Origin: an uncultured Actinomycetota bacterium
GTDB taxonomy: Bacteria; Actinomycetota; Actinomycetes; JACCUZ01
Reading direction: 5' to 3'
Length of the DNA: 64,000 bases
Assembly (NCBI GenBank): GCA_963726615.1
Contig: CAVSCX010000006.1
Span: 1,241 to 65,240 of the forward strand
This document shows positions 3,250 through 64,000 of this stretch, in pieces (positions within the stretch are counted from its first letter, which is position 1; the number at the start of each line of letters is the position of its first letter). Under the pieces are notes generated by a model that had not been told where the DNA came from, ran no database searches, and worked only from the letters and a program-made list of their open reading frames with translations. The translations under genes and the position numbers were made by a program.

Positions 3250-4260
3250 TCAGGCGGTGAACAGGGCGCTGTACGCGTTGAGGGCCGGCTGACCACCCAG
3301 GTGCGCGTACAGCACGGTGGAGTCCCTGCCGATGTCGCCGTCCCGCACGAGGTCGATGAGCCCGGCCATCGACTTCCCTTCGTACACCGGGTCGATGATC
3401 ATGCCCTCCAGCGCTCCGGTGAGGCGGATGGCGTCGAGGGTCGACTGCACCGGGACGCCGTACAGGTCACCTGCCCACCCCGCCAGCACGGTGATTTCTT
3501 CGTCGCGCAGCTCCCGGCCCAGCCCGATCAGGTCGGCCGTGCTGCGAGCGATCCGCTCGACCTGCTGGCGGGTCTCGTCGATCTTCGCCGAGGCGTCGAT
3601 GCCGATGACCCGCCGGGGCCGGTCCTGCCCCGCGAAGCCGGCGATCATCCCGGCGTGGGTCGATCCCGTGACCGAGCACACCACGACAGTGTCGAAGAAG
3701 ACGCCGAGCTCCTGCTCCTGGTGTGCCAGCTCGTCGGCCCAGCTCGCGAACCCCAGCCCACCGAGGCGGTGGTCTGACGCGCCGGCGGGGATGCCGTACG
3801 GAGTACCGCCGCGGCGCCGGACGTCCTCGAGCGCGGTGTTCCAGCTGTCCTTGAAGCCGATCCCGAAGCCGGCTGGGTCCAGCCGCACCTCAGCACCCAT
3901 GATCCGCGAGAGCATGATGTTCCCGACCCGGTCGTTGACGCAGTCCGGCCAGTCCACCCAGTTCTCCTGGACGAGGAGCGCTTTCAGCCCCATCTTGGCG
4001 GCGAGCGCGGCGACCTGACGGGTGTGGTTCGACTGGTAGCCGCCGATCGACACCAGGGTGTCGGCACCCTGTGCGATCACGTCCGGGGCGATGTACTCCA
4101 GCTTGCGGGTCTTGTTGCCGCCGTAGGCGAGTCCACTGTTGCAGTCCTCCCGCTTGGCCCAGATCTGCGCGCCGCCGAGGTGCGCGCTGAGCCGCTCCAG
4201 CCGATGGACCGGGCTCGGACCGAACAGCAACGGGTAGCGAGGGAAGTCCTGCAGCGCCAT
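3250..4260 (-). CDS. acdS: 1-aminocyclopropane-1-carboxylate deaminase
   Basis: [39 protein letters not shown] and AHLGG, with the diagnostic Glu/Leu. Confidence 0.95.
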
Positions 4261-4619
4261 GGGGTCTCCTGCGGTCGGGTGGGTCGATCCTGCCCGGTCG
4301 GCCGACCGTGGCCCGACCCGGGCTTTCGACCGCGACCTGGCGCCGCTCCGGCATCCTCGCGGTGCGGGCCGCTACTATGGCCGGAGCACCAACAGGGCAC
4401 GGCGCTGGTGTGGCGACGACGCTCGATGCGCGGCTGGCCCCACCCGGGCAAGCCGCCGGCGCGGAGGCATCGATCTCTCGGGATTCCCGGGACCGGTGCA
4501 CAGCCGGAGCAGCCGGCAGGGACGGACCTTCGCCCCACGTCTGTCGGCCCGGCCACTGGACGGCGCACGAGTACGTCTTTCCGCCGCGGCGAGCGCCGCG
4601 CGCTCCGGAGGAGGGGTTT

Positions 4620-6767
4620 GTGGCTCGAGAAGGCCAGCGCTCATCGGGTGCTCGCCGTACCGCCCCGCGCAACCAGCGACGGGGCCGCGACCGCGACAAC
4701 GAGGGCATCATCCCGGTGCTCGCCCGCGCGGTGCGCGAGGTCGAGGCCGCGGCCGAGCGCGGGCGGGTGAGGCCATCGGTGCGTACGAAGTTCCAGGCCG
4801 TCGCACTGCTGGTGCGCCAGGAGCGTGCCCGGGTCCGGGCGGACGGCTCCATCGGCGACACGCACCGCGGTGAGATGCTCAAGCGGCTCGACGGCGTCGC
4901 CACCATCCTCGCCAAGGCAGCGGTCCGGGACGCCGCGCTCCTCTCCCTCCTCGCCGACGACGCCGTGGTCTCCGGCGCAGCCGCCTCGCTCGCGCGGGAC
5001 ATGCAGCGGGACGCCGGGATCGAGTCGGTCGCTGACGAGGCCGCGCCGCCGGAGCCCGTGGCGGCCGCGGCCACCACCGAGCGTCGGGTCGTGCCGCAGT
5101 CCGTCGTCTCACGGCAGCTCGCCAACCCGTTCCTCGCCCCGGACTTCAGCACCGTCCGGCAGCGTGCCGCCCCCGCCCGGCGCCTGGCCAGCTGGGAGCT
5201 GCTCGGCCCGCTCTTCAGCTCGTTCGAACGCGCCGGCGGCGGCGCCTCGACGGGCATGACGCTGCCCGCGGCTTCCTCCCTCCGCGCGGCGGGCGGCCTC
5301 ACACTGATGCCGCACCAGGCCGGGCTGATCGCCGCCGCCGCTGCCGGCCACCGGACGTTCCTGCTGGCGGACGAGCCGGGCCTGGGCAAGACCGCGCAGG
5401 CGCTGCTCGCCGCGCAGGCGGCAGACGCCTATCCGCTGCTCGCCGTCGTGCCGAACGTCGTCAAGACCAACTGGGCCCGTGAGGCCGGTCTCTGGACCCC
5501 CAGCCGCAAGGCCACCGTGATCCACGGCGACGGCGAGACGGTGGACGGCTTCGCCGACATCGTGATCGTCAACTACGAGGTGCTCGACCGGCACGTGGGC
5601 TGGCTCGGTGACCTCGGCTTCCGCAGCATGGTCGTCGACGAGGCGCACTTCATCAAGAACAAGTCATCTCAGCGCTCACAGCACGTGCTGGAGCTCTCCG
5701 AGCGGATGCGGGCCCGGGCCGCGCGCCCCTTGCTGATGGCCCTCACCGGGACCCCGCTGATCAACGACATCGAGGACTTCCGGGCGATCTGGCAGTTCCT
5801 CGGCTGGATCGACGACAAGAAGCCGCTCGCGGAGCTCATGCACGCCCTGGAGGAGACCGGCCTGACGCCGGAGGACCCCGCCTTCTACCCTGCGGCTCGC
5901 CGCTGCGTGGTCGACCTCGGCATCGTCCGGCGCCGCAAGGTCGACGTGGCCGCCGACATCCCCGCACGGCGCGTGGCCGACCTGCCGGTCGAGCTCGACG
6001 ACGCGGTCGGCCGCTCGATCCGGGAGGCAGAGCGTGACCTTGCGCGCCGCCTGGTGTCTCAGTACGACCGCGCGCTGGCGAGGCGGGCGTCCGGTCCCGC
6101 CGAGGGGACGGGCCACGACGGCATCGACCACGATCTGGTGCGAAGGATCGCCACCAGGGAGCGCAAGGCGTCGTCCGAGGCGAAGACCGGCGAGAACGTG
6201 TTCAGCATGATGCGGCGCATCGGCCAGGCGAAAGCCGGCCTCAGCGCCGACTACGCCGCACAGCTGGCCCGCAGCGCCGGCAAGGTCGTCTTCTTCGCCA
6301 AGCACATCGACGTCATGGACGTCGCGGAGGAGGCCTTCACCAAACGAGGGATCCGTTTCTCGTCGATCCGTGGCGACCAGACCCGGACGTCTCGTCAGAA
6401 GAACATCGACGCCTTCACGAACGACCCCGACGTCCACATCGCGGTCTGCTCTCTCACCGCCGCCGGCGTGGGCATCAACCTGCAGGTCGCCTCCAACATC
6501 GTGCTTGCCGAGCTCTCGTGGACGGACGCGGAGCAGACCCAGGCGATCGACCGGAGCCATCGCATCGGTCAGACGGAGCCGGTCACGGCATGGCGCATCA
6601 TCGCCGCCCAGACAATCGACGCGAGGATCGCCGAGCTGATCGACAGCAAGGCGGGACTGGCCGCCCGGGCGCTCGACGGCGCCGAGGACGTCGAGTTCTC
6701 CTCTGCCGACGTGCAGCTCGAGGCCATCGTCGCGCTGTTGACCGACGCGCTGGCGGCCCGGCAGTAG
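4620..6767 (+). CDS. SNF2-like DEAD/DEAH-box helicase
   Basis: LADEPGLGKT, DEAH, TGTP, QAIDRSHRIGQ; GTG 4620 after GGAGGAGG. Confidence 0.9.
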   Translation: MAREGQRSSGARRTAPRNQRRGRDRDNEGIIPVLARAVREVEAAAERGRVRPSVRTKFQAVALLVRQERARVRADGSIGDTHRGEMLKRLDGVATILAKAAVRDAALLSLLADDAVVSGAAASLARDMQRDAGIESVADEAAPPEPVAAAATTERRVVPQSVVSRQLANPFLAPDFSTVRQRAAPARRLASWELLGPLFSSFERAGGGASTGMTLPAASSLRAAGGLTLMPHQAGLIAAAAAGHRTFLLADEPGLGKTAQALLAAQAADAYPLLAVVPNVVKTNWAREAGLWTPSRKATVIHGDGETVDGFADIVIVNYEVLDRHVGWLGDLGFRSMVVDEAHFIKNKSSQRSQHVLELSERMRARAARPLLMALTGTPLINDIEDFRAIWQFLGWIDDKKPLAELMHALEETGLTPEDPAFYPAARRCVVDLGIVRRRKVDVAADIPARRVADLPVELDDAVGRSIREAERDLARRLVSQYDRALARRASGPAEGTGHDGIDHDLVRRIATRERKASSEAKTGENVFSMMRRIGQAKAGLSADYAAQLARSAGKVVFFAKHIDVMDVAEEAFTKRGIRFSSIRGDQTRTSRQKNIDAFTNDPDVHIAVCSLTAAGVGINLQVASNIVLAELSWTDAEQTQAIDRSHRIGQTEPVTAWRIIAAQTIDARIAELIDSKAGLAARALDGAEDVEFSSADVQLEAIVALLTDALAARQ

Positions 6768-6782
6768 CCACCCCGTCAGCCC

Positions 6783-6883
6783 GTCCGAGTCGCATCCCGG
6801 CACCAACGACGGCGCAATGCTGCGCCGTGCCCGGTTCCAGGCCCACGGAGCGAGTTGCTCCGTCGTTGGTGTCGCCGTCGGAC
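6783..6883. repeat. Long imperfect palindrome (REP/MITE-like) between convergent genes
   Basis: 6798-6817 matches the reverse complement of 6855-6874 at 18/20; outer GTCCGA/TCGGAC; internal sub-hairpins. Confidence 0.7.
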
Positions 6884-6944
6884 TCTCGGGTCCCTGGACC
6901 GCGGCCCTCGTGGTCGCCGCCGGCTCCCGGCCGAGCGCCCTGCG

Positions 6945-7757
6945 TCAGCGTGAGGACGTTCCGGCCGAGCCCCCCTGCTCGACCGACACGTACTCCTGGA
7001 CTCGCTGGGCCCAGAGGCGGATCGACGGACCGTTCAGCGCCATGTCGGATGTGCTCGGCCAGTCGGCGTACATCGTCGCCGCGTCCCGAGGGTGAGCCTC
7101 GGACACCCAGGTGGCAAACGGCTCCCACATCTGCGCGGAGAAGCCGTTGGACTCGAAGTCGAGCTGCTGCTCCACCGCGGTAATCTTCCCGTCCAGGACG
7201 GTGATGTTGAACTGGCTGTTGGCGAACGGCCCGCGGCCCAGCTCGTCGGAGCCCAGCGCGTGGTAGTCGAACGTGCACACCACGTTGGTGGTCCCGGACA
7301 GCGTGCTAGACATCCTGTCGCAGGAGTCGACCAGCAGCAGGTACCGGACGGCCTCCATCCAGCGGTTGCCGGCACGCCAGACGTCGAAGCCACGCTCGTC
7401 CCGCCAGATCGACACGTAGGCGTCGGGGGCCAGGTACGACGCGGCGCGATCCCGGTCGAAGGACCCGTAGGCGTCGAGGAAAGCCGCTGCCACCTCGGTC
7501 GAGGAGGCAGGCGGCGCGACGGCCTTGGTCCGGTCGAGGTCCAGGCCGCTCGTCCAGACGACGAGCACGACCGCAGCCGCGGCGGCGGCGGCGACCAGGG
7601 CCCTGGTGCCCCAACGACGATGGCGACGAGCGACCTCGTGCTCCGCGTCGACCAGCAGGGTCTGCAACTGCTCTTCGGTGCGTGTGTGGCTCATGGCGTT
7701 CTCCGCATGTTGGTGGAGCACCGCGGTCAGCCGGCGCTCCAGGTCTGAGGTGGTCAT
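6945..7757 (-). CDS. Single-TM protein, probable anti-sigma factor
   Basis: ATGA overlap with the ECF gene; DLERRLTAVL N-terminus, one TM, extracytoplasmic domain. Confidence 0.7.
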   Translation of the reverse strand: MTTSDLERRLTAVLHQHAENAMSHTRTEEQLQTLLVDAEHEVARRHRRWGTRALVAAAAAAAVVLVVWTSGLDLDRTKAVAPPASSTEVAAAFLDAYGSFDRDRAASYLAPDAYVSIWRDERGFDVWRAGNRWMEAVRYLLLVDSCDRMSSTLSGTTNVVCTFDYHALGSDELGRGPFANSQFNITVLDGKITAVEQQLDFESNGFSAQMWEPFATWVSEAHPRDAATMYADWPSTSDMALNGPSIRLWAQRVQEYVSVEQGGSAGTSSR

Positions 7758-8311
7758 GGCGCGACCTCCAGGCAGCGAGCGAGCGCGGCCAGGCCGCGGC
7801 TGGCGTGCCGCTTGACCGAGCCGCGCGACACCTCGAGCGTGCCGGCGATCTCCGCCTCGCTCTGGTCGAGGTAGTAGCGCAGAACCAGCACCTGCCGCTG
7901 CCGTACCGGCAGGTGGGTGATGGCCTGCCAGAGGCGGTCCGCCTGATCGTGCTGGACGGCGTCCTGCTCGGCCGACGGCAGTCCTTCGGGACGTGGCGTC
8001 AAGCGGAGCAGCGAGGAGGTGACCCGCCGCCCGTGGCGGAGCTGGTCGCGACCGCCGTTGACGACTGCGCGGTTCAGGTACGCGACCGCTGCCTGCGGGT
8101 CGCGCAGTGTCCGCCACCTGCGGTACAGGCCCATGAACGCCTCCTGCACCACGTCCTCAGCGGTCTCCCGGTCATCGACGAGCAGAGAGGCGAGCCCGAC
8201 CAGGCGGCGGTGGTGGACGAGGAACAGGCCCGCGACCGCGTCGCTGCGCTCGACCGGCTGCGGTTGGTCCGCCGGCTCGGTCTCGCGCACCCGACCCACT
8301 CCGTTCACCAC
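7754..8311 (-). CDS. ECF sigma factor (SigE-like family)
   Basis: AEDVVQEAF; LPVRQRQVLVLRYYLDQSEAEIA...GSVKRHASRG. Confidence 0.92.
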   Translation of the reverse strand: MVNGVGRVRETEPADQPQPVERSDAVAGLFLVHHRRLVGLASLLVDDRETAEDVVQEAFMGLYRRWRTLRDPQAAVAYLNRAVVNGGRDQLRHGRRVTSSLLRLTPRPEGLPSAEQDAVQHDQADRLWQAITHLPVRQRQVLVLRYYLDQSEAEIAGTLEVSRGSVKRHASRGLAALARCLEVAP

Positions 8312-8316
8312 GGATC

Positions 8317-8341
8317 AGACGACTCAGCGTCGCGCCGGTTG
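8317..8341 (-). promoter_or_regulatory. ECF-type promoter CAAC-N16-CGTCT (probably autoregulatory, leaderless)
   Basis: Lies immediately before the ECF GTG start. Confidence 0.55.
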
Positions 8342-8596
8342 ACAGCGGCATCAAGGTCCGTGGACCGGGCTGGGCCGGTCCGTGCGCTCCGCGACCTCCT
8401 CACACCAGGCCCGGGCGGCACCGGCCGGCATCCGGCGAAAGATTGCAGACGGTGGTGTAAAGGTCCGCGTCAGGTGGTACGTCCCCGACGGCGACGGCTC
8501 CCGTGCCCCCCTTGCCAGGTGTCCCCCTCCCGCCCCGGCAGTAGGGGACGAGCCGTGGAGCCGTCGCCGATCTCGTGCGGTGCGCGCCATCGGGCC

Positions 8597-8863
8597 TCAG
8601 GCAGGAGGCGCCAGCGGGTTCGTCCCGCCCTGCGTGAGCTGGGCTGCCCGCGACTCGCTCGGCATCAGGATCCACAGCGCCGGGTAGACGAGCAGCTGGC
8701 TGCCGGGTACGACGAGCAGCAGCAGCACGAACAGGAACCGGGACGGCCACGGCTCGATGCCGATCCGCCGGCCGAGGCCGGCGGCCACGCCGCCCAGCAC
8801 CTTGTCGTTGCGGGCGCGGACCAGCCCGTGCTGGGCGAAGGTGCGGTGAAGGTTGTCCATCAT
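8597..8863 (-). CDS. PspC domain protein
   Basis: R..NDKVLGGVAAGLG...YPALWILMP. Confidence 0.9.
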   Translation of the reverse strand: MMDNLHRTFAQHGLVRARNDKVLGGVAAGLGRRIGIEPWPSRFLFVLLLLVVPGSQLLVYPALWILMPSESRAAQLTQGGTNPLAPPA

Positions 8864-9151
8864 GTTCGATCCTGAGTCCTGTCGCAGTCGCCGTGCCGCC
8901 GGTCGGCGGCACGCGTGTACCTGGGTACGGGATCCACGATGGACCCCGGGCCACCCCGTGTGCATCGGGGACCGACCCTGGTCGGACCCCGGCTTCGCCG
9001 CGGGACCGACTCAGGGGCGGCGACCAGCACGTGGGCGCCTCGGGTGCTGTCCCGATGGTCCGACCGCGGGCCGGGCAGTCGGTGTGTCGTTATCGAGTCC
9101 GACACGACCGCCTACCGGCGAGGAGGCGCCCAGCACAGGAGAATGCCCGGC

Positions 9152-10365
9152 ATGGCGAAACCCCTGACCAGCGCGCAGCACATCGACCTCACCGAGCGGT
9201 ACGCGGCGCACAACTACCACCCGCTCCCGGTCGTGCTCAGCCACGGCGACGGGGCATGGGTCACCGACGTCGAGGGCGAGCGCTACCTCGACTGTCTTGC
9301 CGGCTACTCCGCGCTGAACTTCGGCCACCAGAACCCGCGGCTGGTAGCCCGGGCCCAGGAACAGCTGCATCGGCTGACCCTCACCAGCCGGGCCTTCTAC
9401 AACGACCAGCTCGGCATCTTCGCGGAGGCTCTGGCGCGCCTGGTGGGCAAGGACATGATCCTGCCGATGAACTCGGGAGCCGAGGCAGTCGAGACCGCCC
9501 TGAAGGTGGCCCGCAAGTGGGGCGTCCGGGTCAAGGGCGTGTCGGCCGACCGGGGGCGCATCATCGTCATGGACGGCAACTTCCACGGCCGGACGACGAC
9601 CATCGTCGGCTTCAGCAGTGACGACGATGCCCGCCGTGACTACGGCCCGTTCACGCCGGGCTTCGACCCGGTGCCCTTCGGCAAGGCGGTCGCCGTCGGC
9701 GACGCACTCACCGAGGACACCGTGGCCGTGCTCCTCGAGCCGATCCAGGGAGAGGGCGGGGTCCTCATCCCGCCGCCGGGCTTCCTCCGACAGGTGCGCG
9801 AGATCTGCGACCGGAACGGCATCCTGCTCATCGCCGACGAGATCCAGTCCGGGCTCGCGCGCACCGGACGCACCCTCGCCGTCGCGCACGAGGACGTGCA
9901 GCCCGACATCGTGATCCTGGGGAAGGCCCTCGGCGGGGGGATCCTCCCGGTGTCCGCCATCGCAGCTGACTCCTCCGTCCTGGGCGTGATCACGCCCGGC
10001 ACCCACGGCTCGACTTTCGGTGGCAACCCGCTTGCCGCCGCAGTGGGGCACGAGGTGTGCCTCATGCTCGAGACCGGCGAGTTCCAGGCGCGCGCCTCGG
10101 AGCTGGGGGGCCGGTTGGAGGCCGGCCTGCTCGGTCTCGGCTCCGACGCGATCCGCGAGGTGCGCTGCCGCGGCCTGTGGGCAGGGATCGACCTCGACCC
10201 CGCGGTGATGACCGGACGTCAGCTCTGCGACGGCCTCCTCGCACATCACGTGCTGGCCAAGGACACTCATGGCTCGACGATCCGGCTCGCCCCGCCGTTG
10301 GTCTGCTCCGCCGACGACATCGACCTGCTCGTCGAGGCGATCGGCACTGTGCTTGCAAGCAGTCC

Positions 10366-54997: not shown

Positions 54998-56048
54998 ATG
55001 CGCGCCACCCTCATCCACGCTGCTCGCGACATCCGAGTCGAGGATGTGCCGGACGCTGCCGTGCAGCGCCCCGGCGACGCCGTCGTCCGGGTGGTCGCCG
55101 CCTGCGTCTGCGGCTCCGACCTGTGGCCCTACCGGGGTGTGATCGAGACCACCGCTCCAGGCCGCATCGGCCACGAGTTCGTCGGGGTCGTGGAGGACAT
55201 CGGCTCCGACGTCGCGACGCTGCGCGTCGGTGACTTCGTCATCGCGCCGTTCGCGCTGTCCGACGGCACCTGTGTCCACTGCCGCAACGGCATGTACACC
55301 TCGTGTGTGAACGGCGCCTGGTGGGGCGGCGAGGACTCGTACGGCCTCAGGGTCGACGCCGGGCAGGGTGAGGCGGTGCGGGTGCCGATGGCCGACGGCA
55401 CGCTGGTCGCGACTCCCGACCTGCCCGACGAGTCGATGATCGCGAGCCTGCTCACCCTGTCCGACGTCATGGGCACCGGACACCACGCAGCGTCGTCGGC
55501 CGGTGTCGGCAAGGGCTCGACCGTCGTCGTGGTGGGCGATGGTGCTGTCGGTCAGTGCGCCGTCCTGGCCTCACGCCGCCTTGGCGCGGAGCGGGTTGTC
55601 GCGATGTCGCGCCACGCCGACCGCCAGGCGCTGGCCCGGGACTTCGGGGCCACCGACGTCGTGGAGCAGCGCGGCGACGAGGGTGTCGCCGCGGTCGAGG
55701 AGCTGTTGGGCGGCATCGGTGCCGACGCGGTGCTCGAGTGCGTGGGCACCAAGGAGTCGATGCAGCAGGCGATCGACGTGGCCCGTCCCGGCGGCCGGGT
55801 GGGGTACGTCGGCGTGCCGGCAGGCGGCGCCGAGCTGCCGATCCGGCAGCTGTTCTCGTCGAACGTCACGGTGGGTGGCGGCGTGGCGCCGGTCCGGGCG
55901 TACATCCCGGACCTGCTGGCCGACGTGCTGTCGGGCGAGCTCGACCCGGGCCGGGTCTTCGACCTGGTCCTTCCGCTCGAGCAGGTGGCCGACGCCTACG
56001 CGGCGATGGACGACGCGGCGGTCGATCAAGACGATGCTGCGCCCGTAG
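54998..56048 (+). CDS. Zn-dependent alcohol dehydrogenase (+1 frameshift near 56014)
   Basis: CGSD, GHE, GDGAVG; C-terminus RRSIKTMLRP in the next frame. Confidence 0.88.
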
Positions 56049-56064
56049 CCGGACCGGGTGCCGC

Positions 56065-56763
56065 TCAGCCCGCGAGCTGGCGGTTGAGGGCAGCCAGCAC
56101 GGAACGGGCGACCGACTCGGCTTCGTCCCCGCGGACCGCGGCGCAGCCCGTGAGCACCTGCTCGCCGGTGCGAGGCAGCAGCATGGTCAGGACCGTCATG
56201 GCGACGTCACGCGTGCCGGTGGCGACGATCGTCGACGACTCGACCTCGCAGGGCTGACCGAGCAGCTCGGCTACGGCGTCGAGGGTCGCGACGGCCACCA
56301 ACCGGGCCCGGTGGCTGGCGCCGGCCGGACCCTGGCTCCGGCCCTCGAACAGCTGGTCGCCGGCGGCCAGGGTCACGGACGCCTCGGTCTCACCCTTGCC
56401 GCTGCGCACCATGATCGCGGCGATCGCGGGCCGGACCACAGCCTCCGGCTCGCTGGCGGGAACGTCGGGCGCGACGTCCGGGCCGTCGGCCGGCGCAGGT
56501 GTGACCGGGACGGCAGGCCCGCGCAGCTCGTCGTCGCCCATCTGCACGACCGACACGATGCGGTGGTCGATGTCGATGTCGTAGCGCGCCATGGCGAGCG
56601 ACTGCACGTCGCGCACCACCTGCTTGGCCGCCTTGCCCGGGTCGGCAAGCACGTGCACCTCGGTGGGCACGGCGTCCGGCCCGGTGACGACGCTGGCAGC
56701 GCGAACGCCCTGGATGTGGCGCAGCGCGTCCTCGAGCTCCGGCAGCAGGCGCAGCGTGGGCAT
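56065..56763 (-). CDS. Hypothetical protein with a LeuA-regulatory-like C-terminal domain
   Basis: GAGGAG RBS; EVHVLA...KQVVRDVQS...IDHRIVSV; ends VARSVLAALNRQL. Confidence 0.8.
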   Translation of the reverse strand: MPTLRLLPELEDALRHIQGVRAASVVTGPDAVPTEVHVLADPGKAAKQVVRDVQSLAMARYDIDIDHRIVSVVQMGDDELRGPAVPVTPAPADGPDVAPDVPASEPEAVVRPAIAAIMVRSGKGETEASVTLAAGDQLFEGRSQGPAGASHRARLVAVATLDAVAELLGQPCEVESSTIVATGTRDVAMTVLTMLLPRTGEQVLTGCAAVRGDEAESVARSVLAALNRQLAG

Positions 56764-56810
56764 GAGCGGGGGGCTCCTCGGGCGGGTGCGATGGGAGGTC
56801 GGGGTGGCGA

Positions 56811-57428
56811 TCAGGCGCGGTCCGACGCGGGGATCTCTCGGAGGTCGGCCACGAACAGGCGGGGCGATGGTCTCCCCAGGGTGCTCGGTCCGGTCCCCGC
56901 AGGGGCTGAGGCGCGCCGGTCGGCGTCGAGATCGGCCCGCTCCGCCGGGAGCCGGACCACCCGCTCGGCAGTCGTCTGCGGCCACCCCGGTCCGGACCGC
57001 TCGGGGGTCGCGGGAGGGACGGGGGCCGGCGCCGGGCGGCCCGCGGTCCCGGTCGGCCCGGCCTCGGTCGGCCCGGTCTCGGTGGGCCCGGCCCCGGTGG
57101 GCCCGGCCCCGGTGGGCCCGGCCTCGGTCGGCCCGGCCTCGCCCAGCGTGGCCGCGGCCCCGCCGGCGTACCGGCGCGCCTCGGCGTCGCTCGCGTCCAG
57201 GGCGTCCAGGACGGCCGGCAGCACCGTGCGGGCGTGGTCGTCGACCGCGTTGACTGCCGCTCGCTGCCAGAAACGGAGCCGGTTGGCCGCGCGTGGGGAC
57301 AGCTCCTCGGCGGCGACCGCGGCCGCCAGCTCGGCGTCGAACCGGGCGGTCGCATGGTCCGTCCGGGCGTCGAGCAGCCCGTTCACCAGGTCGGACCACG
57401 ACGCTCCCGGAGCCCCTGCCGCGGTCAC
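56811..57428 (-). CDS. Hypothetical protein with a GPT-repeat linker
   Basis: GTG after AGGGGGGAG; helical N-domain (RFDAEL...LRFWQR). Confidence 0.7.
   Translation of the reverse strand: MTAAGAPGASWSDLVNGLLDARTDHATARFDAELAAAVAAEELSPRAANRLRFWQRAAVNAVDDHARTVLPAVLDALDASDAEARRYAGGAAATLGEAGPTEAGPTGAGPTGAGPTETGPTEAGPTGTAGRPAPAPVPPATPERSGPGWPQTTAERVVRLPAERADLDADRRASAPAGTGPSTLGRPSPRLFVADLREIPASDRA
57051..57140. repeat. 15-bp tandem repeat x6 (GGTSGGCCCGGYCYC)
   Basis: Six adjacent units encoding (E/G)(A/T)GPT on the minus strand. Confidence 0.9.
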
Positions 57429-57720
57429 TCTCCCCCCTGCTCCACGGGCGGAGCGTAAAGGAGCCAGACGGGAGAACGGCTCCCATTCCCCTCGGAATGG
57501 TCAGGTCGGAGCAAAGTCGTCACTCGTTCGGGCGCACCGGCCACGCCTAGTCATTTCGGGCGAGATTGCCCGGACTACTAGACACAAATCGGCCTAAGGC
57601 TTGACGGGAGGTTTACCCGCACCCTTCACTGACATGGCGGACGAGCCGACATGTTCCCCGGGGGCCGGGACCATGCGGCCCCCGGAACGGTCCCTGATGG
57701 ACCACCCGGACGGCCGTGGG

Positions 57721-57739
57721 GCCTTTGACAACTGCAGAG
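57721..57739 (+). promoter_or_regulatory. boxA-like element GCCTTTGACAACTGCAGAG in a structured leader
   Basis: Resembles rrn boxA/leader sequences (CTTTRAMAAC). Confidence 0.45.
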
Positions 57740-57900
57740 AGCGTGATCGGGATCGGCAGCACAAGCAAGCCGATCAGCACCATGTGCAGATCTTTCGCAG
57801 CACCAGCACATGCACCACGGATTCATCCTGAGCGGAGCGGATCGTGCACGGGCACATAGCGGAGCCCGTGACATGACACGCAAGGGGATGAGACCCACAT

Positions 57901-57963
57901 ATGAAGAAGATCGTGTCCGCTGTCGAGCAGTTCCTTCAGTCCGGCGCCACATGGCGTTGGTAG
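57901..57963 (+). CDS. 20-aa peptide MKKIVSAVEQFLQSGATWRW
   Basis: AAGGGGATGA (8/10 match to the extended SD) 9 nt before the ATG; TAG stop; directly upstream of the HD-GYP pair. Confidence 0.7.
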   Translation: MKKIVSAVEQFLQSGATWRW

Positions 57964-58047
57964 AGCTGAGGGCTGACAGAAGGCAGTACCACCCTGCGCT
58001 GCCGATCCCCGTCATTCTCTCCGCCTTCCCCCTTGTCAGGAGCGTCG

Positions 58048-59403
58048 ATGCGGGCACTGCCGCTGCCGGCGCGGCTCTACGTCGCGTCCGTGCTCGCCGC
58101 TGCCTGCATGCTGGTGGCCCTGGCGGTCGCGTTCCTCCCCAGATCCGCGATCGACGACGTCATCGTGCTGGGGACGCTGTACCTGATCAGTGAGTCGTTG
58201 TCGTCCCGGGGCAGCCGCGACATGCTGACGATCTCCTTGGGCTCGGTCGTGATCATGGCGGCGATCCCGCTCGTCGGCGTGTGGGGGGCAGTGCTCGTCG
58301 CGTGGACCTCGGCGTTCGCCCATGAGCCACAGGCGACCGAACCCGTGAAGAGGGCCTTCAACGGCGCCATGCTCGTTGTCTCGGCCGGCGCCGCAGGTGG
58401 CGCGTACCAGGCTCTCGGTGGTCGCGTCGGGCTCGGTGCCGACGACTTTCCCAACGTCCTCGGTCCCATGCTGGCCGCGGATCTCGTGCAGTGCGCTGTC
58501 AACGGCGGTGTCGTGGCATTGATCGTCGGCCTGTCGAGCCAGGTCTCTCCGGTGGTCGTCTTCCAGGGGACCATGGCGCGCTCGGTGGTCCCGTACATCG
58601 CCTACGGGTTGTTCGGCATCTCGCTGGCAGTGCTCTGGGACCCGGTCGGCCTCGGGCCGGTCTCGGCAGCGCTGCTGCTGCTCCCGCTGTTCGTCGCCCG
58701 GTGGGCCTACGCGCAGTACGCGGAGGAGCAGCGCGCCTACGACCGCACTGTCCGGACGCTGATGGCGGCCGTCGAGACGAAGGACCTCTACACCCGTGGC
58801 CACAGCGAGCGGGTCTCCGCGGCCTCGGTCCTCATCGCGCGGGAGATCGGGATGCGCGAGGACCGGGTCGCCTCGCTGCGGTACGCCGGGATGCTCCACG
58901 ACGTGGGCAAGCTCGGCGTGCCCACGCGCGTGCTGCAGAAGGCGGGCCGGCTCACCGACGACGAGTTCGCCGCGATCCAGCGGCACCCGGTGCAGGGACT
59001 CGAGATCGTCCGGGAGATCGACTTCCTGGAGGAGGCGAACGCCGGGATCATGCACCACCACGAGCGGCTCGACGGGCTCGGCTACCCGATGGGTCTCACG
59101 GGCAGCCAGATCCCCGAGTTCGCCCGGGTCATCGCCGTGGCGGACGCCTTCGACTCGATGACGACCACCCGGTCCTACCGGGGCGCGCGCAGCATCGAGG
59201 ACGCCGTGGTCGAGCTGCACCGATGCGCCGGCACCCAGTTCGACCCGCCCATGGTCGACGCGCTCGTGCGCGCACTGGACGAGCACGGCTGGGACCCGGA
59301 GACGACGCCGTTGTTCACGGCTCCCGACCCCGACCAGGTCTTCGACCAGCAGGGCGGGGCGCTCGACCACGACGACCCGGCCTACGCCGAGGATTCCCGG
59401 TGA
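58048..59403 (+). CDS. Membrane-bound HD-GYP cyclic-dinucleotide phosphodiesterase
   Basis: Multi-TM N-terminus; YTRGHSERV, LHDVGK, HHHERLDGLGYP, VADAFD, GTQFDP. Confidence 0.93.
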   Translation: MRALPLPARLYVASVLAAACMLVALAVAFLPRSAIDDVIVLGTLYLISESLSSRGSRDMLTISLGSVVIMAAIPLVGVWGAVLVAWTSAFAHEPQATEPVKRAFNGAMLVVSAGAAGGAYQALGGRVGLGADDFPNVLGPMLAADLVQCAVNGGVVALIVGLSSQVSPVVVFQGTMARSVVPYIAYGLFGISLAVLWDPVGLGPVSAALLLLPLFVARWAYAQYAEEQRAYDRTVRTLMAAVETKDLYTRGHSERVSAASVLIAREIGMREDRVASLRYAGMLHDVGKLGVPTRVLQKAGRLTDDEFAAIQRHPVQGLEIVREIDFLEEANAGIMHHHERLDGLGYPMGLTGSQIPEFARVIAVADAFDSMTTTRSYRGARSIEDAVVELHRCAGTQFDPPMVDALVRALDEHGWDPETTPLFTAPDPDQVFDQQGGALDHDDPAYAEDSR

Positions 59404-60680
59404 CCGCGCGCAGCCGGCTCGACGATGCCGGCAGCATGGGCTACCTCGTCGTGGTGGTCGCCGCTGCGCTGCTCGCCGTCGCCTCCGTCGTCGTGACGGC
59501 GGGCGCCGGCCTGGTCCAGCCGCAGGTCGCTCTGGCGTTCGCCGCCTTCATCGCCCTGGGCGAGCTGGTCCGCATCACCCTGCCGGGCGGGCGCGACGCG
59601 GCCCCGCTGGCCACCGCCGGTGCGCTGGCCTACCTCCTGCTCACCACCTTCTCCGGCCGGCCCGCCGACCACGGCGCGATGCAGGTGGTCGCCGTCTCCG
59701 TCGCGGCCATGCTGCTCGGGGTCGTCCCGCACGCCGTCGCAGGTCGGGCGCCGACGCCGGACATCCTCGCCCGGCGGCTGCTCGTCATCGGCGTGTCCGC
59801 AGCGGCGTTCCGCGGCAGCGGCCTCGACGGCCGGCTCGACCACGTCGCAGGTGCCTTGCTCGCGTTGGTGCTCATCGCGATCGTGGCCTTCAGCCTCGTC
59901 GTCGACGCGGTACTTGCGGCAGCAGTTCGGGCCGGTGCGGATCGCGCCCCCTTCAAGGCGGTCCTGCGCAACGAGGTCCGGGCCCAGGTCGGCATCGGCT
60001 CGGCCATCGGCGCGACCGGCGCCCTGATCGCTCTCGCCGCGACGATCATGGGCTACTGGGCGCTGCCCGTCTTCGTCGTGCCGTTGCTGCTCACCCAGTT
60101 CTCGTTCCGACGGTACGCGGCGATCCGTGAGTCCTCGCTGCAGACGATCCGGGCGCTGTCGCGAGTGACCGAGCTCGGTGGGTACACCGAGGCCGGCCAC
60201 TCCCGGCGGGTGAGCACGCTGGCCGTCGCGGTCGGCCGCGAGCTCGGCATGAGCGACGCCGAGCTGCGCGACCTCGAGTACGCCGCGCTGATGCACGACA
60301 TCGGCCAGCTCTCGCTGGCCGAGCCGATCCCCGGCGGCGCCACCGTCGTGGCTGCCCCTGCCGACCAGCGGCGCATCGCCCGGTTCGGCGCCGAGGTCAT
60401 CAAGCAGACGGGCGTCCTGGACGAGGTGGCCTCCATCGTCGAGCAACAGGCTGAGCCGTACCGCCGGGCGCACGAGGTGGAGCGACCGGACGTCCCGCTG
60501 GCGGCGCGCATCATCAAGGCCGTCAACGCCTACGACGACCTGGTGGGAGACTCTTTCGAGGTCAGGCGGCGGCTCGACGCGCTCGAACGGCTCCGCCTCG
60601 GCATGGCCTACGAGTACGACCCGAAGGTCGTCGACTCCCTCTCGCAGACTGTCGAACGCACGGCCCGCCTCGGCGTCTGA
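59400..60680 (+). CDS. Membrane-bound degenerate HD-GYP protein
   Basis: GTGA overlap; GHSRRV and MHDIG retained; HHE and GYP replaced by QQAEPY; NAYD. Confidence 0.88.
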   Translation: MTARSRLDDAGSMGYLVVVVAAALLAVASVVVTAGAGLVQPQVALAFAAFIALGELVRITLPGGRDAAPLATAGALAYLLLTTFSGRPADHGAMQVVAVSVAAMLLGVVPHAVAGRAPTPDILARRLLVIGVSAAAFRGSGLDGRLDHVAGALLALVLIAIVAFSLVVDAVLAAAVRAGADRAPFKAVLRNEVRAQVGIGSAIGATGALIALAATIMGYWALPVFVVPLLLTQFSFRRYAAIRESSLQTIRALSRVTELGGYTEAGHSRRVSTLAVAVGRELGMSDAELRDLEYAALMHDIGQLSLAEPIPGGATVVAAPADQRRIARFGAEVIKQTGVLDEVASIVEQQAEPYRRAHEVERPDVPLAARIIKAVNAYDDLVGDSFEVRRRLDALERLRLGMAYEYDPKVVDSLSQTVERTARLGV

Positions 60681-61213
60681 AGCCCCGTCGCGCGTCGGCG
60701 CCCACCTGCCGTCACGAGCAGCAGCCCGATGCCGGCGGCGACCAGGACGTCGCCGAGGCTGACCACCTGCGGCCGGTACGGCAGCGCCACCGGCACCCGG
60801 TCACCGAGGGCGGCCCACCGGGTGCCTGGCCCGGAGGGCTCGCGCATCGCGTCGCGCTCCAGGCCCAGCTGGGCGCTGCTGATGCCCGCCTTCGCCGCGG
60901 CATCGAGCGACACCGGCATCGCGGCGTTCGCTGTCACCACCAGGATGTTGAGCAGCAGGCCCAGGGCCATCAGCGGGATACCGGGCAGGCGGGCGTTGCC
61001 GGCGAGGAACAGGGCCACCAGCACGGCAGTGAGGGCCAGCGCGACGCCGCGGGCGAGGCCCGAACCGGGTGCCACCGTCGAGGTGACGAGCTGCACGATC
61101 GCGGCTGCAACGAGAAGGCGGACGGCCCGCAACCGCACTCGCGCCAGCCTGGCGGGACCGGTGGCGACGGCCATCGCCAGTGCGCCGACCGCCACGACCA
61201 GGACCAGGACCAT
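60608..61213 (-). CDS. DUF5317-like membrane protein
   Basis: Multi-TM; LN.LV..AN..MPV, LGD...SLGD. Confidence 0.8.
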   Translation of the reverse strand: MVLVLVVAVGALAMAVATGPARLARVRLRAVRLLVAAAIVQLVTSTVAPGSGLARGVALALTAVLVALFLAGNARLPGIPLMALGLLLNILVVTANAAMPVSLDAAAKAGISSAQLGLERDAMREPSGPGTRWAALGDRVPVALPYRPQVVSLGDVLVAAGIGLLLVTAGGRRRATGLQTPRRAVRSTVCERESTTFGSYS

Positions 61214-61263
61214 CCCGCTAGTCTCGCCTGCCGGACCGCCGCCGACCGGGAGGCCACCCCACC

Positions 61264-62604
61264 GTGTTCGAGACCGTGCTCGTCGCCAACCGCGGCGAGA
61301 TCGCGCGCCGCATCATCCGCACCGTGCAGCGACTGGGCATGCAGGCTGTCGCCGTCTACTCCGACGTTGACGCCAAGCTGCCCTTCGTCCGGGAGGCCGA
61401 CGAAGCCGTCGCGATCGGGCCGGCCCAGCCGGCCGCCAGCTACCGGAACGCCGACGCCCTGCTCGAGGCGGCGCGCCAGACAGGGGCCCAGGCGGTACAC
61501 CCTGGCTACGGCTTCCTGGCCGAGGATGCCGGCTTCGCGCGCCGGGTCCGCGAGGCCGGGCTCGCCTGGGTCGGACCGTCGGCCGACTCCATCGAGGCGA
61601 TGGGAGACAAGATCCGCGCCCGCAACCTGGTGGCAGCCGCGGGGGTGCCTGTGTCCCGGGGCACAGCCGAGCCGGTCGGCGACCCCGAGGCGGCGGTCGC
61701 GGCGGCGCGGGAGATCGGCTTCCCGGTCATGGTCAAGGCCTCCGCCGGCGGCGGTGGCATGGGCATGGCGGTGGCGATCGACGAGGAGTCCCTGCGCACC
61801 GAGCTGGACCGGGTCCGCGGGTTCGCCGAGCGGATGTTCGGCGACCCCGCCGTGCTGGTCGAGCGGTTCTTCCCCCGGGTGCGGCACGTCGAGGTGCAGG
61901 TGCTCGGGCTGTCCGACGGCCGCGTGGTGGCCCTGGGGGAGCGGGACTGCTCCGTGCAGCGCCGGCACCAGAAGCTCGCCGAGGAGACCCCGTCGCCCGC
62001 GGTCGGCCCCGCCCTGCGCGAACGGCTGTTCACCGCCGCCGTCCGGGCGGCCGAGGCAGTCGGCTACCGCAACGCGGGCACGGTCGAGTGCCTGCTCGAC
62101 GTGGACAGCGGCGAGGTGGTGTTCCTCGAGATGAACACCCGGCTGCAGGTCGAGCACCCGGTCACGGAGATGGTCACCGGCATCGACCTGGTCGAGCAGC
62201 AGCTGCGGATCGCGGCCGGCCTGGCGGTCACGTTCGACCCTGACGCCGTCCGCGCCTCCGGGCACGCGATAGAGCTCCGGGTCAACGCCGAGGACCCGGT
62301 GCGATTCCTCCCCGGACCGGGCGCGGTGACGGCGTGGGAGGAACCGTCCGGGGAAGGCGTCCGGGTGGACAGCGGCTACGCAGCGGGGACGACCGTCACG
62401 CCGCACTACGACTCGCTGATGGCCAAGCTCGTCGTCCACGGCGCCGACCGGGACCAGGCGCTCGAGCGAGCCCGGGCAGCGGTGGCCGCGTTCCGGGTGG
62501 AGGGTCCCAAGTGCAACCTGCCGTTCTTCGCCGAGCTCCTCGTGCACCCGGAGTTCGTCTCCGGCGACTACGACACCGGGATCGTCGGCCGGATGCGGGG
62601 CTGA
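61264..62604 (+). CDS. Biotin carboxylase subunit
   Basis: ANRGEIA, HPGYGFL, RDCSVQRRHQK, EMNTRLQVEH. Confidence 0.93.
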   Translation: MFETVLVANRGEIARRIIRTVQRLGMQAVAVYSDVDAKLPFVREADEAVAIGPAQPAASYRNADALLEAARQTGAQAVHPGYGFLAEDAGFARRVREAGLAWVGPSADSIEAMGDKIRARNLVAAAGVPVSRGTAEPVGDPEAAVAAAREIGFPVMVKASAGGGGMGMAVAIDEESLRTELDRVRGFAERMFGDPAVLVERFFPRVRHVEVQVLGLSDGRVVALGERDCSVQRRHQKLAEETPSPAVGPALRERLFTAAVRAAEAVGYRNAGTVECLLDVDSGEVVFLEMNTRLQVEHPVTEMVTGIDLVEQQLRIAAGLAVTFDPDAVRASGHAIELRVNAEDPVRFLPGPGAVTAWEEPSGEGVRVDSGYAAGTTVTPHYDSLMAKLVVHGADRDQALERARAAVAAFRVEGPKCNLPFFAELLVHPEFVSGDYDTGIVGRMRG

Positions 62605-62694
62605 CCACCGACGCCGGGCGGCCGGTCCACCCTGTGGTTGGATGCCGAACCGGTGGCCGCACTGCCGCCGACGGTGAACGAGGGAGGAGCCTCC

Positions 62695-62910
62695 GTGGCG
62701 AAGGAAGTTCGGGCCGAGATGGTGGCGAACGTCTGGAAGGTCGTGGTCGCGGAGGGTGACAGCGTCGCCGACGGGGACACCCTGGTGATCCTCGAGTCGA
62801 TGAAGATGGAGATCCCCGTCCTGGCGGAGAGCGACGGGACCGTCGCCGCCCTGCACGTCGCCGAGGGCGACGTGGTCCAGGAGGGTGACGTCATCGCGGT
62901 GCTCGAGTAG
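62695..62910 (+). CDS. Biotin/lipoyl carrier protein
   Basis: ESMKME; GGAGGAG RBS. Confidence 0.92.
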   Translation: MAKEVRAEMVANVWKVVVAEGDSVADGDTLVILESMKMEIPVLAESDGTVAALHVAEGDVVQEGDVIAVLE

Positions 62911-62942
62911 CGCCGCCTGCCCGGAACGGGAGATCCTTCCCG

Positions 62943-62971
62943 CTCAAGGTCACGGGTCATGGGCCCGATGC
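62943..62971 (+). promoter_or_regulatory. FliA/WhiG-type promoter candidate CTCA-N17-CCCGATGC
   Basis: Same geometry as 38729-38757; 8 nt before the pilT GTG. Confidence 0.45.
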
Positions 62972-62979
62972 CTAGTTTT

Positions 62980-64000
62980 GTGACTGGTTCGGAGCCGTTG
63001 AGCGTCATCCCGTTCCTCCGTGCCCTGTCGGAGGTCGGAGGGTCGGACCTGCACGTCAAGGTCGGCTCGCCTCCGCGGGTCCGGATCGACGGCAGGCTGC
63101 GGCGCCTGCAGGCCCCCAACCTCACCCCCACCGACACCGAGCACATGGTTCGGGAGGTCCTCCGTGAGGACCTGATCACGGAGTTCGCCACCACCAACGA
63201 GGCGGACTTCGCCTACTCCGTGCCCGGTCTGGGCCGCTTCCGGGTGAATGCGTTCCGCTCCCGCGGGTCCTCGGGCATGGTCTTCCGTCGCGTGAGCGTG
63301 GGGGCGATCCCGCTCGACGAGCTGGGCCTCCCCCCGGTCATCAGTGCCCTCGCGATGGAGCCTCGGGGCCTCGTGCTGGTCACCGGGCCGACCGGTTCGG
63401 GGAAGACGACCACCCTCGCCGGCATGATCGACCAGATCAACAACAACCGCGAGGTGCACGTCGTCACCATCGAGGACCCGATCGAGGTGCTCCACTTCGA
63501 CAAGCTCTCGATGATCAACCAGCGCGAGGTGCGGCTGGACACGGCCGACTTCGGCGTCGCGCTGAGGGCCGCCATGCGGCAGGACCCGGACGTGATCCTC
63601 GTGGGCGAGATGCGCGACCACGAGACGGTCAAGGCGGCTCTGGCGGCCTCGGAGACCGGTCACTTCGTCATGTCGACGCTGCACACGACTGACGCCCAGG
63701 AGACCATCACCCGGGTGATCGACTTCTTCCCGCCGCACGAGCAGAAGCAGGTGCGGCTCTCCCTGGCAGGAGCGCTCCGCGGCATCATCTGCCAGCGGCT
63801 CGTGCCGCGGGCCGACGGTCAGGGTCGCTGCGTGACCATGGAGGTCTGCGTCGCCACCGGCCGCATCGCCGACGCCATCGCCGACCCCGACAAGACCGGC
63901 ACCATCGGCGAGCTGATCAAGGAGGGTGCCTACTACGGCATGCAGACCTTCGACCAGCACCTGGTGGCGCTGATCCGTGACGGTGTCATCACGCTCGACG
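62980..64000 (+). CDS. pilT: PilT/PilU-family type IV pilus ATPase (3' truncated by the window)
   Basis: SDLHVKVG, GPTGSGKTT, TIEDPIE, RQDPDVILVGEMRD, STLHT, GMQTFDQ. Confidence 0.9.
   Translation, partial: MTGSEPLSVIPFLRALSEVGGSDLHVKVGSPPRVRIDGRLRRLQAPNLTPTDTEHMVREVLREDLITEFATTNEADFAYSVPGLGRFRVNAFRSRGSSGMVFRRVSVGAIPLDELGLPPVISALAMEPRGLVLVTGPTGSGKTTTLAGMIDQINNNREVHVVTIEDPIEVLHFDKLSMINQREVRLDTADFGVALRAAMRQDPDVILVGEMRDHETVKAALAASETGHFVMSTLHTTDAQETITRVIDFFPPHEQKQVRLSLAGALRGIICQRLVPRADGQGRCVTMEVCVATGRIADAIADPDKTGTIGELIKEGAYYGMQTFDQHLVALIRDGVITLD

Follow-up and report, generated by a model that had tools for sequence, protein, structure and literature searches.

DUF5317, a membrane protein outside the LspA family, is likely part of a conserved module with a micropeptide and membrane c-di-GMP enzymes

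The stretch of DNA analyzed here (the window) comprises 64,000 nucleotides from an uncultured Actinomycetota bacterium (GCA_963726615.1, contig CAVSCX010000006.1, positions 1,241 to 65,240), and the gene under study encodes a membrane protein of the family DUF5317. An original prediction had read this protein as a distant relative of signal peptidase II (LspA) that could process a neighboring peptide without cysteine. We found that the DUF5317 protein is outside the LspA family. It is likely part of a conserved module of three parts, namely, a tiny peptide gene, one or two cyclic di-GMP (c-di-GMP) enzymes with membrane sensors, and DUF5317 itself. The reading that we rank first, and hold tentatively on model-based grounds, is that an outward-facing, aspartyl peptidase-like site of DUF5317 acts on the micropeptide.

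The open reading frame (ORF) of the gene matched PF17248 (DUF5317) in Pfam (E 1.1e-23; 84.3 bits against a cut-off of 25) over positions 2 to 150 of the 151 in the model, in agreement with the predicted identity; a scan of its product against NCBIfam gave zero family matches. A representative library contained 1684 homologues at E<=1e-3. DUF5317 was present in 77 of 201 sampled Actinomycetota genomes, and the Thermus and Thermotoga genomes included as controls gave matches as well. The 3' end of the gene overlaps that of the second HD-domain gene in antisense by the 73 bp that had been predicted (Table 1), and match coordinates gave a convergent overlap of ∼70 bp in two relatives' loci as well (L093 and L094). 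This overlap and the many long spurious ORFs of high-GC DNA would fit a chance frame antisense to real genes. Such an origin is refuted by the Pfam score, the number of homologues, and the confident fold described below, the conserved synteny likewise speaks against it, and we consider its probability negligible.

Conservation was assessed in an alignment of 128 DUF5317 representatives (160 to 260 residues, <=50% identity). All of the motif strings named in the original prediction (G85-LLL-N89-ILVV-T94-A-N96, L136-G-D138, and S152-L-G-D155) were located in the product of the ORF. N89 was found in 127 of the 128 representatives, N96 in 126, S152 in 123, G154 in 128, and D155 in 127, the sole D155 exception being a protein that looks frameshifted. 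D138 was retained in 119/128; it was replaced by Glu in two and by Ala, Gln, or Arg in five otherwise intact proteins, and two further sequences were apparently frameshifted. Other highly conserved positions were N73 (121/128), G78 (127/128), M99 (126/128), and P100 (128/128). This near-invariance over 128 representatives indicated that the motifs are true features of the family, beyond chance. The two aspartates are 17 residues apart, as had been claimed, but LGD and SLGD are separated by 13 residues rather than 14.

An AlphaFold2 (AF2) model of the protein, based on a 122-sequence alignment, reached a predicted local distance difference test (pLDDT) score of 90.0 and a predicted template modeling score (pTM) of 0.80. 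The model had five predicted transmembrane (TM) helices (residues 2-18/20-23, 31-47, 52-72, 79-96, and 153-171), and the 56-residue loop between helices 4 and 5 contained four strands (99-101, 124-126, 138-142, and 149-152) and two short helices. D155 was the third residue of helix 153-171, which bore out the placement of the second aspartate at the start of the last TM helix. Alignment-wide, Lys and Arg made up 0.21 per residue of loop 19-30, 0.19 of loop 73-78, and 0.23 of the C-terminal tail, compared with 0.01 of the N terminus, 0.05 of loop 48-51, and 0.08 of the large loop. Since by the positive-inside rule Lys/Arg-rich loops lie on the cytoplasmic side, this distribution would place the N terminus and the large loop outside and the C terminus inside (N-out, C-in, with the large loop extracytoplasmic). 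In this predicted topology, N89 and N96 at the end of TM4 as well as D138 and D155 would all be situated at the outer membrane face. DSSP assignment of the model showed that strands 138-142 and 149-152 run into helix 153-171 and that D138 and D155 flank one and the same hairpin, and the two residues should therefore lie near each other. Together with N89, N96, M-P-V-S, S152, and G154, they would form a polar cluster at the outer membrane face, around the hairpin entering the last helix. A second conserved patch, N73-R-x-L-P-G78, was found on the cytoplasmic side.

As described in PMC6952399, LspA has four TM helices, a beta-cradle between H1 and H2, a dyad (D118/D136) toward the outer surface, and 14 conserved residues, including GN..DR and FNxAD. 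Compared with this, the proposal that DUF5317 as a whole protein has a distant LspA fold was not supported. No match to PF01252 was obtained in Pfam at E<=0.1. An hhalign comparison of the 122-sequence DUF5317 profile with 30 actinobacterial LspA proteins gave probabilities of 0.05% (global) and 1.8% (local), and the region aligned was TM1, away from the aspartate motif. (Unpublished genomes contributed to this LspA profile [loci L037, L041, L052, L055, and L061 from G058, G030, G046, G038, and G052] and to the counts given below, namely, L022 [G017] among 30 relatives' loci and L073 [G181], L077/L126 [G209], and L088 [G080] in the phylum-level set; they were never the sole basis of any claim.) The best match in a profile search of all Protein Data Bank (PDB) sequences was an unrelated KAS II chain (E 0.34). 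Foldseek against the PDB gave nothing at E<=0.001 for either the whole model (best E 2.9) or residues 76-175 (best E 5.0). The best matches of the whole model in an exhaustive VIA search (Z up to 7.3) were generic helical hairpins over residues 8-75, LspA being absent from the best 50, and an ESM Atlas search yielded no usable match. The beta-cradle had no counterpart either: loops 19-30 and 48-51 were strandless, the loop at the cradle position comprised 4 residues only, and a sheet was found between helices 4 and 5 alone.

The same data were used to judge whether DUF5317 could nevertheless be a genuine but highly divergent signal peptidase II (A8) acting on lipoproteins. The motif resemblance and a weak local match to the LspA chain 6ryp_A (see below) are all that favors it. 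The host genome encodes its own LspA on another contig, which matches PF01252 with 125.6 bits, and of 41 genomes sampled across the class, 40 contained a normal LspA. Moreover, a lipobox Cys after small residues was absent from the 20-residue peptide of the window and from the 14 peptides of the second type of module described below. With the differing helix number and the missing cradle added, we regard this explanation as very improbable, and a true LspA paralog as effectively excluded.

A local likeness, however, found weak support: residues 76-175 weakly matched the LspA segment that carries the dyad, whereas family comparisons and whole-model searches did not point to LspA. Folded alone, residues 76-175 gave a pLDDT of 95.4, and residues 93-156 of 6ryp_A (Staphylococcus aureus LspA) aligned with this model at Z 3.6 and a root mean square deviation (rmsd) of 2.0 Å over 63/64 residues with 16% identity. 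That chain ranked 37 among 48,161 chains searched, none of which reached Z 5; among the best 50 matches listed, it alone had >=60 aligned residues at an rmsd of <3 Å. D118, D136, and 10 of the 14 conserved residues of LspA lie within the matched segment (PMC6952399). A second structural alignment of the 76-175 submodel against the PDB aligned 14 chains, none with Z>=2. When hhalign was restricted to the C-terminal part, the best path paired S152-x-G-D155 with F-N-x-A-D, and greedy extension added a pairing of L-G-D138 with V-V-D-F; this path was not significant (score 12.4, E 0.13, probability 0.46%). The structural match and the restricted alignment, two weak and independent indications, agree with the motif mapping. 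They weakly support an LspA-like local site set in a different overall fold, by either convergence or very remote descent.

Residue by residue, the site resembles that of LspA (MEROPS A8, PF01252; PDB 6RYO/6RYP) in several respects. Both belong to small polytopic membrane proteins, both present two conserved aspartates at the (in DUF5317, predicted) outer membrane face, 17 residues apart in DUF5317 versus 18 in S. aureus LspA, and in both the second aspartate opens the last helix; the last two helices with their hairpin superpose, weakly, on the LspA segment mentioned above. DUF5317 is also linked to a peptide in which a basic N terminus precedes a hydrophobic core closed by small residues. 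In contrast, DUF5317 is predicted to have five helices and an outside N terminus, whereas LspA has four helices and both ends inside, and ∼30 additional loop residues separate the Asn at the TM end from the first Asp. Its motifs are S-x-G-D and L-G-D (together with N-x6-N-A-A-M-P-V) instead of F-N-x-A-D and V-x-D, the D-R pair is missing, and D21, K25, N52, and G54 of LspA had no counterparts in the aligned part. Finally, D138 is not invariant, and the candidate substrates are without a lipobox Cys. GxGD intramembrane aspartyl proteases (presenilin, signal peptide peptidase, and prepilin peptidase) have YD and GxGD motifs inside TM helices and 6 to 9 TM segments. In the AF2 model of DUF5317, which has five helices, one x-G-D motif falls on a strand and the other where a helix begins. 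There was no GxGD protease among the VIA matches listed, and a profile comparison aimed at these proteases was not made.

The module became apparent from gene neighborhoods. The host genome contains two DUF5317 genes, and at both loci a mini-ORF, DUF5317, and a gene for a membrane HD-GYP or GGDEF-EAL protein occupy one neighborhood. In the window, the 20-codon ORF is followed by an HD-GYP gene (HD-GYP1), a second HD gene, the convergent DUF5317 gene, and a biotin carboxylase gene in divergent orientation. The second locus (L004) has a 31-codon ORF, the gene for a 699-residue TM-GGDEF-EAL protein, and the DUF5317 paralog in this order on a single strand, with a 4-bp start/stop overlap between the latter two. 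Across 30 relatives' loci, a GGDEF-EAL gene was located directly upstream on the same strand in 19/19 loci of the paralog-2 type, and a convergent HD gene was present in 9/11 loci of the window type, the remaining two (L021 and L028) having none within the 1.5-kb flank. At the phylum level, 13 of 20 loci had an HD-GYP or GGDEF-EAL gene within 5-kb flanks. The second locus (7165-10005) is situated ∼13 kb from the genome's lspA gene (C11:696070-696480) and adjoins a dnaE-like gene for the DNA polymerase III alpha subunit. In one relative's locus (L099, genome G012, positions 4232-6920), both HD genes seem split over multiple frames, in contrast to an intact DUF5317 gene and mini-ORF; this genome is 74% complete, and an assembly error is a possible cause of the split.

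The enzymes themselves share features at their membrane side. HD-GYP1 and the GGDEF-EAL protein of the second locus have homologous TM sensor domains (hhalign 97%, E 8.8e-11, 144 columns), and that of the second HD protein gave a weak match (23.8%, E 8e-4); pairwise BLASTP comparisons of these domains did not reach significance (E 0.07-0.11). DUF5317 was unrelated to the sensor domains of its neighbors (hhalign 0.1-0.3%). The second HD protein keeps the HD residues, but its HHExxDGxGYP motif was missing in the window and in every ortholog match, which identifies the gene as a degenerate HD-GYP; judging from sequence, its product is probably noncatalytic or acts differently, paired with the intact HD-GYP1. 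The neighbors resemble MASE9-type proteins, which are c-di-GMP enzymes in which one N-terminal polytopic sensor domain is common to HD-GYP and GGDEF-EAL outputs (Galperin and Chou preprint, 10.1101/2021.11.05.467447). They differ in that their MASE9 match lay below the Pfam cut-off in the GGDEF-EAL protein (E 0.002, 18.5 bits versus 24.3) and was absent from both HD proteins of the window. The part of the preprint available contained no mention of DUF5317 or of a micropeptide.

As for the micropeptide, its proposed link to DUF5317 held as a genetic association, the mini-ORF being conserved at both types of DUF5317 locus. In window-type loci, the 20-residue peptide (20-mer) was encoded in the same place wherever upstream DNA was present, in full in the window, L093 to L101, and L104 and partially, at a contig end, in L102; L103 is cut inside HD-GYP1. 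Copies were 80-95% identical over the 20 residues, W18 and W20 were invariant in 11/11 full copies, and variable sites of the ORF numbered 6, 3, and 9 at the first, second, and third codon positions, respectively. In the window, the peptide ends with S-G-A-T-W-R-W; it looks amphipathic rather than transmembrane. The second locus encodes a 31-residue peptide (31-mer) with a basic N terminus, a hydrophobic core of ∼18 residues, and a V-G-A-G-T-K-W end followed by 0-3 residues; a GGAGG ribosome-binding site precedes it. ORFs of this design (30-36 residues, (V)GAG(T)KW end, GGAGG) were found in 14/14 GGDEF-EAL loci; in three of these (L114-L116), the mini-ORF was recognized by design and weak similarity alone. 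At the phylum level, a similar mini-ORF (small residues, x-x, W end) was present in at least 9 of 20 loci, a lower bound since the search (20 of 30 loci, 5-kb flanks) was heuristic. A strict filter applied to all 30 loci with 1.5-kb flanks found none, these flanks being too short. In two distant Actinomycetota genomes (L120, 5731 and 6114, +; L122, 3192 and 3403, +), the mini-ORF occurs as two tandem, near-identical copies in front of a c-di-GMP enzyme gene.

Nucleotide conservation in the leader of the HD-GYP operon (window 57830-58030) extended past the 20-codon ORF. Conserved blocks were AGCGGAGCGGATC-TGCACGGGC and GCCCGTGAC upstream and CCCTGCGCTGCCGATCCCCGTCAC downstream of it, and within the ORF the GC-poor codons GCT, CTT, and ATC were invariant despite a genomic GC content of ∼72%. 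Taken together, the blocks and the invariant codons suggest that the leader is an RNA element in addition to a coding mini-ORF. Rfam gave no match at E<=1 over positions 55000-64000.

Further clues came from longer proteins. A search with the DUF5317 profile for proteins of >=448 residues at E<=1e-5 returned 16 proteins (P0270-P0285) of 582-752 residues, in all of which DUF5317 was N terminal. MFS_1 (PF07690; MFS, major facilitator superfamily) was detected in 15/16, and in 9 of these 15 MFS_3 (PF05977, "transmembrane secretion effector") was detected as well. N73, N89, N96, D138, S152, G154, and D155 were kept in 16/16 long forms; one DUF5317-MFS protein derives from Acidimicrobiales according to its source name. 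The five-helix, C-in topology fits an N-in MFS. Fusions of peptidases and exporters are known, and the DUF5317-MFS proteins recall them; a connection with export would be in keeping with a role in peptide handling but is no proof of catalysis.

Our first-ranked reading can be put as a sequence of steps. The outward-facing D138/D155 site would bind the C-terminal end of the co-encoded micropeptide (small residue-x-x-Trp) at the outer membrane face, and then hydrolyze the bound end. Processing or removal of the peptide would determine which state the sensor domain of the HD-GYP or GGDEF-EAL enzyme adopts in the membrane, and thereby the c-di-GMP level. We infer the contact between site and peptide end from the models: if the N terminus of a 31-mer-type peptide is inside, its conserved end would come to lie at the outer face, beside the predicted DUF5317 site. 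The hydrolytic step is possible, and we credit it only with reserve. A complex prediction for the DUF5317 paralog and the 31-residue peptide scored 0.18 against a mark of 0.32, in a run without controls.

Several observations weigh against this peptidase reading. The closeness of the two aspartates follows from their hairpin position and not from coordinates, and a catalytic residue would not usually be replaced by Ala, Gln, or Arg, as D138 is in five otherwise intact proteins. Profile and fold searches with the whole protein gave nothing, the LspA motifs GN..DR and FNxAD were not found as such, and the Z of 3.6 is within the VIA noise level, 36 unrelated chains scoring above 6ryp_A. The conserved cytoplasmic loop N-R-x-L-P-G suits a signaling partner more than a plain peptidase, and 7 of the 20 phylum-level loci were without a c-di-GMP enzyme within 5 kb. 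On the peptide side, the only hydrophobic stretch of the 20-mer contains E9, Q10, and Q13, and its length does not suffice to cross the bilayer, so the window copy has no evident reach to an outward-facing site, which weakens its proposed role as a substrate. In addition, the conserved Trp is followed by 0-3 residues of variable sequence, and a released product would thus be tiny.

Some of these points are better accommodated if DUF5317 is a noncatalytic membrane partner that binds the micropeptide and/or the neighbors' TM sensor and modulates the enzyme, similar to MgrB-PhoQ, with the Asn/Asp cluster as a binding site. We rank this explanation second, close behind the first, and it too is less likely than not. 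It is consistent with the conserved synteny with TM-sensor c-di-GMP enzymes, the start/stop overlap of the GGDEF-EAL and DUF5317 genes, the sensor domain that HD-GYP1 and GGDEF-EAL have in common, conserved residues on both membrane faces including the cytoplasmic loop, the incomplete invariance of D138, and the lack of a protease family match. Yet near-invariance of 4-6 small polar residues, in 128 representatives and in the MFS fusions, is a pattern seen more often in catalytic or ion-binding sites than at protein interfaces, the fusions suggest that an exported molecule is handled, and the phylum-level loci lacking an enzyme nearby count against a dedicated partner as well.

Alternatively, the Asn/Asp cluster might bind a cation, a lipid head group, or another small molecule at the outer face, in which case DUF5317 would act in sensing, or in export as an accessory or gating component, and the micropeptide would be merely a co-regulated subunit. 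Acidic and amide residues facing outward at the membrane interface would suit such a site, as would the N-terminal fusion to MFS_1/MFS_3 with all site residues kept. However, the mini-ORF with its small residue-x-x-Trp end in both paralogous modules is left unexplained, and among the matches listed there was no fold match to a known ion- or lipid-binding membrane protein. This explanation ranks third and appears unlikely.

Carried further, the peptidase reading would make DUF5317 the founder of a new family of intramembrane aspartyl peptidases whose site faces outward and which cut Cys-less, signal peptide-like micropeptides after the small residues (G-A-G / S-G-A) near their end. Its active site would have converged on that of LspA or be very distantly related to it. 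MASE9-like sensors of the adjacent HD-GYP or GGDEF-EAL enzymes would read the product, a Trp-containing fragment of 3-6 residues, or the loss of the peptide from the membrane, in an Agr-like autocrine loop wired to c-di-GMP, and MFS-fused versions would both process and export. We think this extended version rather doubtful.

Two known arrangements may serve for comparison. In the AgrB-AgrD-AgrC system of staphylococci, a precursor peptide, a polytopic processing protein (AgrB, a cysteine endopeptidase), and a polytopic sensor are combined, with a histidine kinase as output. The DUF5317 module follows the same logic of small peptide, putative processing membrane protein, and membrane sensor, but AgrB is unrelated to DUF5317 in sequence, the module's peptides are far shorter, with 0-3 residues past the conserved Trp, and the output is c-di-GMP turnover. 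In MgrB-PhoQ and AcrZ-AcrB, a small membrane protein regulates a membrane-bound sensor or enzyme. Here, the likeness is a single-pass peptide of 20-36 residues encoded with a membrane partner; the DUF5317 module differs in always adding a third, five-helix protein with an enzyme-like polar site.

DUF5317 is a widespread family without an assigned function, and neither DUF5317 nor PF17248 was mentioned in the literature searched, supplementary files being outside the search. A literature search for HD-GYP together with small membrane proteins gave nothing evidently related, as judged by titles and the openings of abstracts. If D138 and D155 are catalytic, DUF5317 would represent a new intramembrane protease family, and a class of micropeptides that lack annotation would gain its first processing enzyme. 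Should they prove noncatalytic, DUF5317 would still be the conserved third component that accompanies membrane c-di-GMP enzymes with MASE9-type sensory domains. In both cases, a limited and well-defined group of genes makes the sensory input of these enzymes accessible to testing. The coordinates of the features are compiled in Table 1; the conserved start of HD-GYP1 is the ATG at 58048, and the ORF list has a TTG at 58033.

Table 1. Positions of the features discussed, in the window unless another locus is named.
Feature	Position	Strand	Characteristics and evidence
20-codon, Cys-free mini-ORF heading the HD-GYP operon	57901..57963	+	Ends W-R-W; AAGGGGA ribosome-binding site; conserved in relatives
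First membrane HD-GYP phosphodiesterase gene (HD-GYP1)	58048..59403	+	PF13487, E 3.3e-38; HD and HHExxDGxGYP present
Second membrane HD-domain gene (HD_5)	59436..60680	+	PF13487, E 4.9e-11; HD kept, GYP absent
DUF5317 gene	60608..61213	-	201 codons + stop; PF17248 match, AF2 model, K+R density
Convergent overlap (73 bp) of the 3' ends of DUF5317 and the second HD-type gene	60608..60680	both	ORF coordinates, stop included
Codon D155 (S-x-G-D), third residue of predicted TM5	60749..60751	-	Alignment; MFS-fused forms 16/16
Codon D138 (LGD), first residue of strand 138-142 in the modeled hairpin entering TM5	60800..60802	-	Alignment and DSSP
Codons N89-N96 (N-ILVVTA-N), predicted outer end of TM4, followed by conserved G/A-A-M-P-V-S	60926..60949	-	Alignment of 128
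Conserved, predicted cytoplasmic loop N73-R-x-L-P-G78 joining TM3 and TM4	60980..60997	-	Alignment; positive-inside side
Second locus (L004, own genome, contig C11), DUF5317 gene	7165-7767	single strand	
Second locus (L004), TM-GGDEF-EAL gene	7764-9863	single strand	
Second locus (L004), 31-codon ORF	9913-10005	single strand	

Upstream of the module, a gene divergent from the mini-ORF (window 56065-57486, -) kept its synteny in relatives with 54-67% identity, and its product matched no Pfam family. The 5' half of this gene lies in a stretch of 81-87% GC, in which another frame reads as Gly-Pro-Thr repeats.

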